This document shows, one piece after another, positions 2 to 11,231 of a stretch of 24,864 nucleotides of DNA. Made by a program: the position numbers and the translations under genes. Below the pieces are notes generated by a model that ran no database searches, was not told where the DNA came from, and saw nothing but the letters and a program-made list of their open reading frames with translations. Positions within the stretch are counted from its first letter, which is position 1. Each line of letters opens with the position of its first letter. This DNA is from an uncultured Ruminococcus sp. (GTDB lineage Bacteria; Bacillota; Clostridia; Oscillospirales; Acutalibacteraceae): the NCBI GenBank assembly GCA_902773245.1, contig CACYDY010000236.1, positions 1-24,864 of the forward strand, read 5' to 3'.

Positions 2-76
2 GACAGTATTCTTGCGGATTTTTTCCTTGACCTCAGCAAAATTATGCTCGAAAATCTGCTCACGTCAAGATACTAA
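2..76 (+). CDS. 3' end of an unidentified CDS running in from the window edge (...DSILADFFLDLSKIMLENLLTSRY*)
   Basis: Open frame from position 2 to TAA at 74-76; too short to identify. Confidence 0.4.
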   Translation, partial: DSILADFFLDLSKIMLENLLTSRY

Positions 77-3503: not shown

Positions 3504-3851
3504 GGGGGTGTAAAGGTTTCGACGGGGATTTTGAGCCGGAGCCAAGCGAGCAGCGGCGCGGAACCGCTTTAAAAGCCGCAATTTTAAAATTAAACGACAA
3601 CAATACAGTTGCCTTGGCAGCCTGAGTGCTGCCCGTCCTGTTCGAGAGTACCACGGCTCGGATAAGGGCGTCGATTAGTGGTGAACGTGTTCGAGTGGGT
3701 GTCTTGACCTCGTCCATGTATCAAAGACTACTGAAAAAACGAGCCTGCCGTTAGGCGTGTTTTGGAGGGAATGTTAAATTATCGGCTACGCTCGTAGAAA
3801 GCATCGGTAAGAGGTTTTCGGACAGGGGTTCGATTCCCCTCACCTCCACCA
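3504..3851 (+). ncRNA. ssrA: tmRNA (SsrA), 348 nt; tag reading frame 3596-3625 encodes (A)DNNTVALAA*
   Basis: 5' GGGGGTG pairs with 3' CACCTCC-ACCA (G3-U wobble); 'GGTTTCGACGGGG' near 5' end; T-arm GGGGTTCGATTCCCC; tag ORF ending ALAA-TGA; directly after smpB. Confidence 0.97.
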
Positions 3852-5150: not shown

Positions 5151-5362
5151 TGAAAAAGTGGGCAAAATCTTATTGTTAAATTTACTCACATGTTCGTTTT
5201 GGTAAATGTTGATAATCATGTGAAAAACTATTGAATTTTTCCGATCTATGCAATCTACGGTAGTTTCGGAGAAATCGTGCCTCTTACAAGATAATTTCTG
5301 CCCCCTTTCATGCGATTACCGATCAGTATAAATACATTGCTTTTCATAATGAAGCTTCAGCT

Positions 5363-5471
5363 ACACGCCCGGTGGTAATGCGCCTGACATTTTGTTTGTA
5401 ACAATAAATTGACTCCCGCTCATCGGCTGACCACTAAATTTAATGCAAAGCTGCCGCATTGCATTTTGTAA
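5363..5471 (-). repeat. Inverted dispersed copy (one full plus one partial unit) of the ~94-nt repeat at 9809-10086
   Basis: Reverse complement reads aaatttagtggtcagccgatgagcgggagtcaatttattgttacaaacaaaatgtcaggcgcattaccaccgggcgtgt, near-identical to unit 3 (9996-10086). Confidence 0.9.
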
Positions 5472-5550: not shown

Positions 5551-5646
5551 ATTTGTTATTGCTTATAGATAATAAATTTTTCGTATTCAAGCTTTTATTA
5601 TATCAAAACATATAAATACAAACGCATGGATTTGGAGAATACAACC

Positions 5647-6030
5647 ATGAGAACGCAGAATTACTCAAAGAAAAGACAGGCAATTTACGAGCTTCTGTTA
5701 TCAACGAAAGAGCACCCCACCGCCGAATGGATCTACAATACATTAAAAGATGAATACGCCGATTTAAGCTTGGGAACAGTCTACAGAAACTTAAAGCTTC
5801 TTGAAAAAAACGGAATGATAAAATCGGTAGCGGTAGTCAACGGCTGCGAACGATACGATGCGCTGACATCACCGCATTCTCATTTTGTCTGCACAAAATG
5901 CAGCAGAGTGATAGACGTTTTCTATCGTGACGAGGTTCCCGATTTCATCAGGAATATGCACATTGACGGTGCCGACAGAGTGGATTACTTCAGTTTGATA
6001 TACTACGGAACTTGTAATAACTGTGAATAA
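5647..6030 (+). CDS. Fur-family transcriptional repressor, PerR-like
   Basis: 'HPTAEWIY', 'SLGTVYRNL', 'HSHFVCTKC', C-terminal CNNC; GGAG SD favours ATG 5647 over 5626. Confidence 0.92.
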   Translation: MRTQNYSKKRQAIYELLLSTKEHPTAEWIYNTLKDEYADLSLGTVYRNLKLLEKNGMIKSVAVVNGCERYDALTSPHSHFVCTKCSRVIDVFYRDEVPDFIRNMHIDGADRVDYFSLIYYGTCNNCE

Positions 6031-6115: not shown

Positions 6116-6161
6116 GGGCGGTGTCATAACGTTAAATAAGTGTACAATTTTAGCTGACGGC
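6116..6161 (+). repeat. Partial, diverged copy of the ~94-nt repeat
   Basis: ataagtgtacaattttagctgacggc (6136-6161) matches ataagtgtgaaattttagtagacagc (9903-9928) at 21/26 positions. Confidence 0.55.
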
Positions 6162-8794: not shown

Positions 8795-9568
8795 TCAGGA
8801 AAAATCTTCTTTAGAAGCCTTTTTCTTTTGAATCTTTGCGGTTATAGCCGCCGCAAGCTGTGACGGAACGATCTTTGAAGCTGCCGCCGCAATTTTAACC
8901 GAAATTCCGGGAACGATCACCGTTTCCCCTCTTATCATGTTGAGAACGGCATACTTTGCAACATACTTGCTTGAAAGCGGCTTCATAGAAAAATGCACTC
9001 CGGCAACCTTGTTAAACTCGGTGCTGACCGGACCCGGGCAAAGGGCGGAAACGGTAACCGACGAACCGCACTCTTTAAGCTCATGAGAGGCAGCCTGAGT
9101 CAATCTCAAAACATAAGCCTTGCTTGCATAATAAGCAGCCATATACGGTCCCGGCGCGAAAGCCGCAGCCGAAGCAACGTTAAGAATTTTTCCGCTGCCT
9201 CGTTCTTTAAAATCCTTCAAAAAAAGCTTAAACAAAACGTGCATAGCTTCAACATTGAGTCTTATCATCTCGACCTCACGCTCGCAGCTTGTTTTTGTAA
9301 AATCGCCCCAAACTCCGAATCCCGCATTGTTGATCAGAATGTCTATATTCTCGTCTTTAGTCAGTTCGTACAGCTTCGCTGCCTTCTCGGCATTTCCGAT
9401 ATCCATGGCTATTATGCGAGGTTCACCCTGCAGGCAGCCTGCAAGGGCTTTCAGTCTATCCTCACGTCTTGCGACCAAAATGAGTTCACAGCCGTATGCG
9501 TCGAGAACTCTTGCAATATCACGTCCTATTCCCGAGCTTGCTCCGGTTATCAGTACCTTTGTGGGCAT
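8795..9568 (-). CDS. Short-chain dehydrogenase/reductase (SDR)
   Basis: 'TGASSGIG', 'NNAG', 'NVAS', catalytic 'YYASK'; GGAGG SD. Confidence 0.95.
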   Translation of the reverse strand: MPTKVLITGASSGIGRDIARVLDAYGCELILVARREDRLKALAGCLQGEPRIIAMDIGNAEKAAKLYELTKDENIDILINNAGFGVWGDFTKTSCEREVEMIRLNVEAMHVLFKLFLKDFKERGSGKILNVASAAAFAPGPYMAAYYASKAYVLRLTQAASHELKECGSSVTVSALCPGPVSTEFNKVAGVHFSMKPLSSKYVAKYAVLNMIRGETVIVPGISVKIAAAASKIVPSQLAAAITAKIQKKKASKEDFS

Positions 9569-9607
9569 AAATATTCCTCCAGTTATTACGTTTATTTGAA
9601 TAAAATT

Positions 9608-9636
9608 ATTTTACCATACCATTTTGATTTGTGCAA
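9608..9636 (-). promoter_or_regulatory. sigma-A promoter of the SDR gene
   Basis: Minus strand TTGCAC-17 nt-TAAAAT with TGn. Confidence 0.65.
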
Positions 9637-9725
9637 TATAAAAAAAGAATTTTATATTTCCGCGATATGTTTTCTCTGTTGTATAGAGATACCATAAGAT
9701 ATTCCCTCGTTTTGGAAATGAAAAT

Positions 9726-9749
9726 ACCGCCCCTCTATCTGAGGGCGGT
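9726..9749. other. GC-rich hairpin upstream of the tandem array
   Basis: accgcc-c-ctc / gag-ggcggt stem; no clear U-tail and no gene ends here. Confidence 0.45.
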
Positions 9750-9808
9750 TGATTGTTTAATACATCAGGTATTTTTTAGTATACTATTTCTGTAATATGC
9801 AGACAGGC

Positions 9809-10086
9809 GTAAGTATAGTTTAGTGGGCAGTCACCGAGCGGGAGCCAACTCACCGTTACAAAATGTAAGGCAGCATTACCAGCGGGTGTGTGGTCGCCAA
9901 ACATAAGTGTGAAATTTTAGTAGACAGCCAATGAGCGGAAGCCAACTTAATTGTTACAAAAAGTAAGGCGGCATTACCAGCGGGCGTGTGCCCGCCATAA
10001 GTGTGAAATTTTAGTAGACAGCCGATGAGCGGAAGTCAATTTATTGTTACAAAAATGTAAGGCGGCATTACTTGCCCGCCGCCCGC
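9809..10086 (+). repeat. Tandem array of three ~94-nt structured repeats (9809-9901, 9902-9995, 9996-10086)
   Basis: Shared taagtrtr..tttagtrgrcagyc..gagcggragycaay..gttacaaaa.(t)gtaaggcrgcattac..; period 94 at the 'taag' anchor; no unique spacers. Confidence 0.95.
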
Positions 10087-10115
10087 TTGACATCAAACTT
10101 TTGAGATGATATAAT
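10087..10115 (+). promoter_or_regulatory. Perfect consensus sigma-A promoter for acyltransferase 1
   Basis: TTGACA(10087)-17 nt-TATAAT(10110) plus TGn; AAGGAG SD at ~10156. Confidence 0.9.
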
Positions 10116-10166
10116 TTATTACGACAATGAAAAATCCTGTCAAAGTTTTTATGTTAAGGAGCTTTT

Positions 10167-11231
10167 ATGAATTTTATTTTGCTGCTTTATTTTTTGTTGA
10201 TAATACTTGGTGCAAGAAAATATCCGAAAAATCAGCCGTTTGCAAAGAATTGTTTTAGCAAAGAACAATGCTTGTCTTTGAGAGGGGCTTTTGCCGTTCT
10301 TGTGGTTCTTCATCACGCCGGCAACGAAATTAACGGCACAATGCTGTTTTCTCAGCTTTATCACTTTGGTGTGTGGGCTACGGCAGGGTTCTTTGTGATT
10401 TCGGGGTATGGGCTGACGGTTAGTCTGCAAAACAAAAAGGAGAAGTACCTCGGGGAGTTCGTTTCAAAAAGACTCAGATCTCCCGTGTTTCCTTATTTTG
10501 TAATGATTTTGCTGTATTCGGCGTATTTTCGCATTCGTGATAATTACACGCTCAAAGATGTTCTCAACACGTTTTTGATCGGCGCTCCTATTGTAAAAAA
10601 TTCGTGGTACATAATTGCGATAATGTATCTTTATGCATTGTATTATATATTTGCAAAATTGCTCTTTTTGAAAGGAAAGGTCAGGTCTTTTATTCTTGTC
10701 AACTTTGTGGGAGCGGCTGTTTATATCATGCTTTGCAGAGGAGTCGGTTTCGGAACATGGTGGTATAATACGGTGTTCTGCTTTGTTGTCGGAATAATTT
10801 TTGCGGCATACGAAAAGGATATTATTAAAAAAGTCAAAAAACATATTGTTCCGGTCAATATCCTGACGGCGGTTCTTCTGGCGGTTATTTTTGTTTGTAA
10901 AATCAAGCTCCCAAGAGGAACGGATCTGTTTTTGGGCGCAACGGTTCTGTTTGCTGTCACTTTTGCCGTGTTCGTTCCGTTGTTATGCATGATCGTTGAT
11001 TTTTCCAAAAATGCGGTGTTTAAATGGATAGGCAAAATTTCTCTTGAGTTATATCTTATTCATGGCTTGGTAATAGAATTTTTGAAAACCTGTGACAGCG
11101 TTTATTCAAACGGTGCGGTTTTTGTGTGTTTAACGGTTGTATTGTCGATAATTTCGGCGTGGATCATACATTTTGTGCTTTCAAAATTGTGGTTTGTTAA
11201 AAATTCCCCCCACCATGATAATATAAAATGA
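10167..11231 (+). CDS. Acyltransferase-3 family membrane O-acyltransferase (polysaccharide O-acetylation)
   Basis: 'LRGAFAVLVVLHH', 'GFFVISGYGL', 'SWYII', 'IGKISLELYLIH'; multi-TM. Confidence 0.88.
   Translation: MNFILLLYFLLIILGARKYPKNQPFAKNCFSKEQCLSLRGAFAVLVVLHHAGNEINGTMLFSQLYHFGVWATAGFFVISGYGLTVSLQNKKEKYLGEFVSKRLRSPVFPYFVMILLYSAYFRIRDNYTLKDVLNTFLIGAPIVKNSWYIIAIMYLYALYYIFAKLLFLKGKVRSFILVNFVGAAVYIMLCRGVGFGTWWYNTVFCFVVGIIFAAYEKDIIKKVKKHIVPVNILTAVLLAVIFVCKIKLPRGTDLFLGATVLFAVTFAVFVPLLCMIVDFSKNAVFKWIGKISLELYLIHGLVIEFLKTCDSVYSNGAVFVCLTVVLSIISAWIIHFVLSKLWFVKNSPHHDNIK

Follow-up and report, generated by a model that had tools for sequence, protein, structure and literature searches.

Small dispersed repeats are common in bacteria and are usually placed at the 3' ends of genes or at random sites where they are tolerated. 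Among these, the mycobacterial interspersed repetitive units (MIRUs) are intergenic units of 40-100 bp which are dispersed and also occur in short head-to-tail arrays, are oriented with genes and have no known transposase. MIRUs sit inside operons, where their small ORFs overlap the stop and start codons of the flanking genes. The IS91 family and the Helitrons have asymmetric ends and a 3' hairpin, lack inverted repeats and target duplication, and tend to form head-to-tail arrays. The cyanobacterial NsiR1 is confined to one locus, where tandem units of less than 100 nt have demonstrated promoters and terminators. Prokaryotes frequently contain species-specific repeats of more than 85 bp (PMC3372372). 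The reuse of promoter-containing sequences has been described (PMC3575422), and an influence on nearby promoters is known for some MITEs (PMC10969869, PMC3184786).

In our study, a window of 24,864 nt (the whole stretch of DNA that was analysed, from an uncultured Ruminococcus sp.) has been found to contain three head-to-tail units with a period of about 94 nt at positions 9809-10086, which were recognised by eye as well as by repeat search. The array is, on balance, probably a locally amplified locus of an asymmetric, non-coding and promoter-upstream mobile repeat. The best explanation of this repeat is that it is a member of a genus-wide superfamily in rumen Ruminococcus-like bacteria, and the comparison of genomes has shown that it multiplied independently to dozens of loci in several species.

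Tandem Repeats Finder reported positions 9836-10071 with a period of 94, 2.5 copies, 86% matches and a score of 339, and the array ends at 10086, one base before TTGACA, in agreement with the original prediction. The units are 94, 94 and 90 nt long, with start-to-start spacings of 97 and 94 nt. Units 2 and 3 are 84% identical mutually, and unit 1 is the most diverged with 63-74% identity to both. The motif AGCGG, which had been seen twice per unit, is present in this number in each unit of the array. The 3' end of unit 3 is rearranged, the 5' arm of its hairpin having been lost and the GCCCGC arm doubled. Further, TTTTAGTATAC at 9774-9784 is similar to TTTTAGTAGAC of units 2 and 3. The coordinates of all features are collected in Table 1.

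Table 1. Repeat units and neighbouring features in the 24,864-nt window.
Feature	Position	Strand	Remarks
Unit 1	9809..9902	+	Most diverged; 5' module degenerate (TAAGTATAGTTTAGTGGGCAG); nhmmer 9816-9897, 70 bits
Unit 1 3' hairpin	~9882-9897	+	GCGGGT/GTGT/GGTCGC
Unit 2	9903..9996	+	Full length; 5' module 9905-9927; nhmmer 83 bits
Unit 2 3' hairpin	9980-9995	+	GCGGGC-GTGT-GCCCGC
Unit 3	9997..10086	+	Promoter-proximal; 5' module 9999-10021; nhmmer 66 bits
Possible decayed 5' fragment of a further unit	9760..9808	+	Repeat-family search; weak
Sigma-A/sigma-70-type promoter	10087..10115	+	TTGACA-17-TATAAT; score 12/12; TG before -10
Acyltransferase family 3 (Acyl_transf_3) gene	10167..11231	+	Co-oriented with the array; 51 nt past the promoter
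Short-chain dehydrogenase gene	8795..9568	-	Upstream, divergent
Terminator-like hairpin and T-run	9726..9749	-	Between the array and the dehydrogenase promoter
Second copy of the repeat, degenerate	5360..5442	-	nhmmer 55 bits; upstream of fur, opposite orientation
Short 5'-module fragment	6137..6161	+	TAAGTGTACAATTTTAGCTGAC; downstream of fur; not reported by nhmmer

The end of the array directly abuts the -35 of the acyltransferase promoter (offset 0), which is indeed a perfect one as claimed, and from -36 upstream about 280 nt consist entirely of repeat DNA. The acyltransferase gene is followed by a Stealth gene and then by glycosyl/glycerophosphotransferase genes, and it is the first gene of this surface-polysaccharide-type cluster, as the earlier reading of the locus had suggested. 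The divergent dehydrogenase gene is the last segment with DNA-level conservation in congeners. No minus-strand gene is known to end at the terminator-like hairpin. The degenerate copy upstream of fur is among the few antisense exceptions to the orientation of the family. An identical three-unit array is present in further assemblies of this species, both those obtained from ruminant gut metagenomes and GCA_017414395.1.

The window belongs to a rumen metagenome-assembled genome (MAG; G000, the host genome hereafter) of 1.95 Mb in 389 contigs, 83% complete and with 42% G+C. A BLAST search of one unit against this genome had been proposed, and with unit 2 it gave 53 matches, revealing a dispersed family. 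Iterated nhmmer raised this to 81 copies or fragments on 58 contigs, which make up 0.32% of the assembly and are grouped in 63 loci (50 with a single unit, 8 with two and 5 with three, the last two classes making 13 arrays). As 33 of the 81 copies lie within 150 nt of a contig end, the true copy number is probably higher. The copies are exclusively intergenic, and the period of 94/97 nt is no multiple of 3. Alignment of 40 full-length copies extends over about 89 nt and has highlighted a fixed order of conserved blocks with short variable stretches between them. The first block is the 5' module TAAGTGTATAATTTTAGTGGGCAG, 23 nt with a perfect TATAAT, which is the most conserved part; it is followed by GAGCGGAAG, by GTTAC-AAAAT, by GGCGGCATTACC and finally by the terminal hairpin GCGGGC-GTGT-GCCCGC. 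Subfamilies of up to 92% identity are scattered across different contigs and loci, and two arrays (C117 and C120) have an internal identity of 82-97% as against 75% between loci, a pattern which we read as copy-and-paste dispersal together with local tandem duplication. Adjacency to a second repeat family was also observed.

In each of the four species checked, the element is oriented toward the downstream gene, and its 3' end mostly precedes the -35 by 0-17 nt. In the host genome, the downstream gene is on the strand of the element in 37 of 43 cases, a count which, like the other orientation counts, rests on crude ORF-based gene calls in a fragmented, 83%-complete MAG. Between co-directional gene pairs, 17 elements were sense and 0 antisense; divergent spacers held 8 loci, with 7 further probable ones at contig ends, and convergent spacers held 1. 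A promoter was counted where TTGACA-16..18-TATAAT with at most 3 mismatches started from -5 to +24 nt after the element. Such a promoter accompanies 28 of the 48 arrays in the host genome, mostly with 7-17 nt to the -35, against 5% of random windows, so the adjacency first noticed at the acyltransferase gene is the rule across the family. With its offset of 0 from the -35, the array at 9809-10086 is therefore a typical family member. Mirror controls at the 3' flank gave a promoter on the same strand in 31/54 cases and on the opposite strand in 5/54, and those at the 5' flank gave 2/53 and 6/53. Where an upstream gene could be mapped, the promoter-proximal extreme of the free spacer was occupied by the element in 18 of 18 loci (median relative position 0.065, Fisher P 3e-10), a test which covers only loci where a promoter had been detected nearby. 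The canonical promoters beside the element are mutually non-homologous and lie outside the repeat. Element-free upstream spacers of the same genome contain promoter-like sites in 55% of cases, and the free length before the -35 in these spacers has a median of 158 nt; since promoter-like sites are this common, the association is in part a matter of where insertions are tolerated. Placement just before a promoter is unusual for a bacterial repeat.

The genes downstream of the element code for a transporter, TrmK, QueD, RimM, IMPDH, MurT, Fur, an ECF sigma factor, a response regulator, thioredoxin, rubrerythrin, FtsW and the acyltransferase. Pfam annotation of 30 of the downstream genes gave no common function, and a regulon-specific leader was rejected for this reason. 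A replication-strand cause of the orientation was also considered and set aside: 79% of the copies are on the G-rich strand, which agrees with gene bias more than with a strict strand rule, although on short contigs this figure is not decisive.

With the whole unit as query, BLAST gave hardly any matches in 22 congeners and in a sample of 400 genomes from across the order. The 23-nt 5' module AAGTGTATAATTTTAGTRGGCAG was searched with up to 3 mismatches, the reversed pattern serving as control, and it matched 33 times in the host genome, 32 in G005, 25 in G017 and 19 in G008, with 1-4 matches in each of nine other congeners; the reversed pattern had 0 matches in every genome searched. The coding DNA of these species is only about 70-74% identical, whereas the module is almost exactly conserved. 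The families of the sister species share the 5' module and the 3' GC hairpin around a lineage-specific body. In case of G017 (50 contigs), the unit of about 95 nt shares the 5' module and has a body which is diverged though colinear; at the same place it has GC hairpins of different sequence (for example GCGGCG-ACAC-GCCGCC or GTCGGCG-CTT-GCCGAC), and the units are single or tandem with a period of 95-100. Measured from where the promoter-proximal 5' module starts, the -35 is 86-119 nt away in 14/20 loci of G017, 98-109 nt in 7/13 of G005 and 99-119 nt in 6/16 of G008, most of the remaining loci having weaker promoters or other repeats. A sense ORF lies downstream in 18/20 of the G017 loci. Among 41 downstream genes of the host genome, 1 matches an element locus of G017, and the expansions therefore took place at different positions in each lineage. 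A relative in G021 shares the 3' part of the unit; there it forms mosaics with other modules, is found in either orientation and in most cases has no adjacent promoter, so the promoter rule is not universal in the genus.

The single-copy occurrences in the low-copy congeners gave no one orthologous source locus. The family pattern was absent from the IMG/VR, phage, plasmid and JGI metagenome collections, apart from chance matches in coding DNA. In GTDB, besides such chance matches, it was found on two small rumen MAG contigs from dairy cattle, titled uncultured Ruminococcus sp. and Clostridia bacterium; these are 100% identical from exactly the 5' end of the element onward and are for this reason probably mis-binned or chimeric. 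The original prediction had left the choice between an ncRNA motif and a mobile repeat. With 81 copies, and with non-orthologous loci in the congeners, the mobile repeat is the closer description, and the structural argument for a tandem ncRNA did not hold.

The genomes were also searched for machinery and for traces of transposition. The 5' end (TAAGTGTATAAT) and the 3' end (the GC hairpin) are mutually unrelated, no terminal inverted repeats join the ends of a unit, and no conserved target tetranucleotide was seen at the junctions. Genes for Y1/RAYT, RVT_1 reverse transcriptase and IS110 were not found in the host genome (assembly 83% complete), Y1 (PF01797) had no match in G005, G017 and G008, and Y2 (PF04986) had none in five genomes, the control genomes of that search being likewise silent. 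Two candidate partners were rejected. The single TnpB gene (C141) has no similarity to the repeat, and across the genus neither this gene nor a YhgA-like one beside one of the arrays tracks copy number.

Direct repeats are enriched at the flanks (mean longest match 4.9 versus 3.8, P<0.0005; lengths 5-9 bp). About half of them include the element's own last bases beside remnants of earlier units, and the left flanks of C200, C380, C234, C3, C210 and C335 hold remnants of the 3' part of an earlier unit; decayed tandem duplications are thus the better explanation of these cases. Clean cases resembling target-site duplications (TSDs) are limited to three (C185 with 9 bp, C49 and C209 with 6 bp each). 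Exact-protein look-ups for six flanking genes returned only strains with the same copies in the same positions and no empty allele, four strain assemblies did not vary in copy number, and the reconstructed empty-site pattern of C185 was absent from the JGI metagenomes. In a strain variant upstream of rimM (L105), homology breaks inside the element and the upstream context is unrelated.

The distribution of the copies suggests that the repeat spreads by copy-and-paste, with a putative trans-acting factor recognising the conserved 5' module and the 3' hairpin. Integration or retention would be linked to the DNA directly preceding sigma-A promoters, with the element facing the same way as transcription. 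Some arrays are recent local duplications. At the acyltransferase promoter, the most likely effect is architectural, since the native -36 to -300 region would have been replaced by GC-rich hairpin DNA. Moreover, as many as three weak start sites of the -10-only kind may have been added, directed at the acyltransferase gene. The predicted outcome is a promoter which is insulated or modestly modulated, and not one involved in ligand sensing.

A more specific proposal is offered tentatively, as one that we ourselves would call unlikely. The family may be a promoter-homing element, that is, a non-autonomous unit without inverted repeats which would insert only a few bases ahead of the -35 and always in one orientation, its machinery reading the sigma-A promoter or the RNA polymerase bound there. 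Promoter-targeted integration is known from yeast retrotransposons, and such an element would be the bacterial counterpart. Alternatively, under the same proposal, it could be a self-propagating mini-gene, in which a -10 element, a short RNA and a hairpin multiply before host promoters and rewire them.

The possible role of RNA structure was examined over the window and over the alignment of the 40 copies. In Rfam, only tmRNA passed the gathering score in the whole window, the best E-value in 9560-10180 on either strand was 0.76 with permissive filters, and nothing reached E<=0.01 at other loci of the host genome or in the G021 arrays. These searches bear out the statement that the units fit no known riboswitch or ribozyme. 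No IS end matches the repeat, and because it corresponds to neither an Rfam family nor an IS end it is considered undescribed.

A three-way junction had been predicted in all copies. It can be drawn on the consensus, together with the 3' hairpin, at -32 kcal/mol, and 86% of the cells of the alignment are paired in the proposed structure, above shuffled and slid controls. The individual units, however, fold otherwise: the structures of minimum free energy (MFE) are mutually inconsistent among copies, and the plus-strand MFE z-scores of the three window units are -0.5, -0.2 and -1.3, no better than shuffles. RNAalifold retained only five pairs of the 3' hairpin. The closing or outer helix fails at its central pairs in 14-20 of the 40 copies, the small helix is 72% paired, and the inner helix GCGGAAG/CTT.ACCG is 92% paired essentially via linked C-to-T changes common to subfamilies. 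When 19 units of the G017 family were added to the alignment, no consensus structure was obtained. The G-U-compatible changes had been taken as a sign of a conserved fold; covariation in the junction helices is one-sided or lacking.

The 3' hairpin is different; its pairing reaches 92%, and compensatory changes were counted in 14 cells over two of its pairs. The covariation check proposed earlier has thus favoured this hairpin and gone against the junction. Judged from these alignments, the terminal 3' hairpin is the sole structural element under selection, with pairing and not sequence being conserved. In the host genome it does not look like an intrinsic terminator, a T-run (>=5 T in 8 nt) being present after 5 of 57 hairpins.

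Among the other readings of the family, the most probable one takes each unit as a miniature transcription unit, so that the family would consist of multi-copy mobile sRNA genes and the array of a tandem cluster of them; we regard it as unlikely, while giving it some weight. The TATAAT would be a -10-only promoter, transcription would start near the conserved GUGGGCAG, and the hairpin would stop or stabilise an sRNA of about 75 nt. The module with the perfect TATAAT is the most conserved part across species as it is within the host genome, and in G018 and G002 it stands alone, the remainder of the element being absent, with an ORF following at the distance expected of a promoter. At four loci of the host genome (C120, C234, C216 and C177) a ribosome-binding site and start codon directly follow the element with no other promoter-like site, so transcription there comes from or through the element. 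T-runs resembling those of intrinsic terminators follow several 3' hairpins in G005 and G008, and the changes from G-C to G-U in the inner helix are compatible with the plus strand only. On the other hand, there is no -35, the TG is one base too close for an extended -10, T-runs are rare in the host genome as given above, and the units do not fold better than shuffled sequences. The G-U changes are linked CC/TT variants of subfamilies and for this reason represent few independent events. Moreover, at least 60 sRNA genes, each right before another promoter, would be without precedent.

A cis-acting DNA module for a genus-specific DNA-binding protein, either nucleoid-associated or a global regulator, is a less probable reading which we hold to be quite doubtful. 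The module would have been selected upstream of many promoters, and arrays would provide several predicted binding sites. It would account for the near-exact conservation of 23 nt in genomes whose coding identity is about 70-74%, for the TTAGTG direct repeat within the 5' module (the two copies being 13 nt apart), and for the fixed position and orientation relative to promoters in four species. But the module precedes the -35 by about 100 nt, a distance which varies by about 20 nt and shows no helical phasing, the downstream genes share no function, and no candidate protein was found. The positions of the copies are not conserved between species, which fits selfish spread better. The sRNA-unit and binding-module readings are not mutually exclusive with mobility.

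It is improbable, and slightly more so, that the repeat is non-mobile and is a marker of recombination or assembly junctions which was spread by segmental duplication and gene conversion, with the promoter association arising from the fact that extra DNA is tolerated in no other part of the spacer. The frequent remnants of earlier units in left flanks, the 100% identity between the G007 and G009 contigs which starts precisely at the 5' end of the element, the homology break inside the element at L105 and the 33 of 81 copies at contig ends all agree with it. Tolerance alone, however, fails to explain the 17:0 sense orientation. It also leaves unexplained the tight distance to the -35 despite a median of 158 nt free, and the independent multi-copy expansions at different loci in four species.

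A conserved three-way-junction RNA controlling the acyltransferase gene, as a riboswitch- or ribozyme-like cis-regulator or a tandem ncRNA, is essentially excluded: apart from the drawable consensus and its paired cells, the RNAalifold result, the per-copy folds, the z-scores, the helix failures and the G017 comparison are all contrary, the 63 loci lie beside unrelated genes with no Rfam match, and the element is absent from the mRNA of the 10087-10115 promoter because it lies upstream of that promoter.

This study has revealed a repeat, probably a mobile one, which lies in sense orientation immediately before promoters; it does so at dozens of loci with no relation to one another, and in at least four uncultured species of the rumen. 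Such a pattern points to promoter recognition as the integration target, or to a portable module which alters the promoter context; if either is true, it would have a bearing on the evolution of regulatory regions and on promoter design in Clostridia. The repeat also breaks short-read MAG assemblies, as seen from the 33 of 81 copies at contig ends, and should be masked before regulatory-RNA calling.

In comparison with known systems, the repeat is similar to the putative mobile promoters (PMC3575422) in being a homologous sequence upstream of unrelated genes with a promoter-like -10, whereas in the host genome it is found upstream of canonical -35/-10 elements which are non-homologous and outside the repeat. 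Like the MITEs Correia, RUP and bcr1 (PMC10969869, PMC3184786), it is small, non-coding, multi-copy, lineage-specific and presumably non-autonomous; unlike them, it is without terminal inverted repeats and apparently without a consistent TSD, and shows a strict orientation and frequent head-to-tail arrays. With the REP/BIME elements mobilised by RAYT/Y1 (PMC2817692), it shares high copy number, intergenic location, a GC-rich stem-loop conserved as structure, mosaic combinations with other modules (in G021) and adjacency to a second repeat family. REP is a palindrome of 20-40 nt whereas the present unit is 89 nt and asymmetric; its arrays in the host genome are direct tandem and not of alternating orientation, no Y1/RAYT was found in G000, G005, G017 or G008, and it is placed before promoters with almost no copies between convergent genes.

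The IS91 family and the Helitrons are approached in the asymmetric ends, the hairpin near the 3' end, the head-to-tail arrays and the lack of inverted repeats, but no conserved target tetranucleotide is seen at the junctions of the repeat. The resemblance to NsiR1 lies in the tandem units of less than 100 nt, which have a terminal hairpin and possibly a promoter element of their own; the present repeat differs in having 63 loci, no -35 and hairpins which are mostly without a U-run in the host genome. To our knowledge, no other family has a strict position just upstream of the -35, and a literature search was likewise negative. The repeat stands apart from the MIRUs in its position upstream of promoters, in the TATAAT module and 3' GC hairpin, and in belonging to a different phylum. 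Nevertheless, being dispersed as well as tandem, intergenic and co-oriented with genes, with no transposase found, the family appears to behave most like the MIRUs.

Conservation between the window and its congeners at the DNA level was found to end at the dehydrogenase gene in 21 of 22 cases, and beyond the array (window 10087 onward) the acyltransferase/Stealth/glycosyltransferase cluster is not conserved. The array therefore lies on the border of a variable surface-polysaccharide locus. The stretch from the dehydrogenase promoter to the array contains, on the minus strand, a terminator-like hairpin and T-run. No annotated minus-strand gene terminates at this hairpin, which could act as a stop for antisense transcription traversing the array. 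Elsewhere in the window, the fur-like gene is placed between a degenerate inverted copy of the 89-nt repeat, which is one of the rare copies that break the family's orientation rule by lying antisense, and a fragment of the repeat's 5' module.

Features in the window and representative repeat loci in other contigs
Feature	Location	Strand	Remark
tmRNA gene	window 3504-3851	+	Rfam RF00023, 157 bits
Degenerate inverted copy of 89-nt repeat	window 5360-5442	-	one side of fur-like gene
fur-like gene	window 5626-6030		
5'-module fragment of 89-nt repeat	window 6137-6161	+	other side of fur-like gene
Terminator-like hairpin and T-run	window 9726-9749	-	
~190-nt repeat, example copies	C200:9781-9970; C282:4980-5160; C43:4756-4942		G000, the window's own MAG
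Mosaic repeat cluster, example (L034)	G021:C89:180-755		other G021 loci likewise

Breaks in homology were observed at repeat copies outside the window. Loci L031 (G009:C102) and L032 (G007:C101), from MAGs of two different species, have 3,088 bp in common at 100% identity. The left boundary of this stretch coincides exactly with the 5' end of one copy of the repeat, and the DNA to the left of it is unrelated. The identity probably stems from mis-binning or from a chimeric join located at the repeat; a recent transfer is less likely. In the comparison of L105, a single metagenome contig, with locus L101, the rimM gene and its promoter are identical whereas the repeat is absent from L105. Upstream of rimM their homology ends within the 3' hairpin of the element, and the L105 DNA beyond this break is not present in G000.

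Another dispersed repeat of ~190 nt, distinct from the 89-nt repeat, was noticed in G000 contigs outside the window. It has the core GTCGCCTTGGRGCGGCGAGG and two terminator-like hairpins at its end, is without an Rfam match, and divides into several subfamilies (72 matches over 45 contigs, nhmmer). Five copies begin 0-16 nt from an 89-nt repeat copy and further copies begin directly after other GC hairpins, as if such hairpins were the target.

In three G017 loci (L160, L166 and L168) the hairpin of the 89-nt repeat is replaced by another common sequence, GCGGCGCCCAAAACG...GAAGTCAAGCCGAAGGCG..., which is an additional repeat module of that species. Genome G021 carries long mosaic repeat clusters, with at least 67 matches and a period of 104-110 nt, in which a relative of the 89-nt repeat is joined with other modules, frequently head-to-head, and this arrangement is BIME-like.
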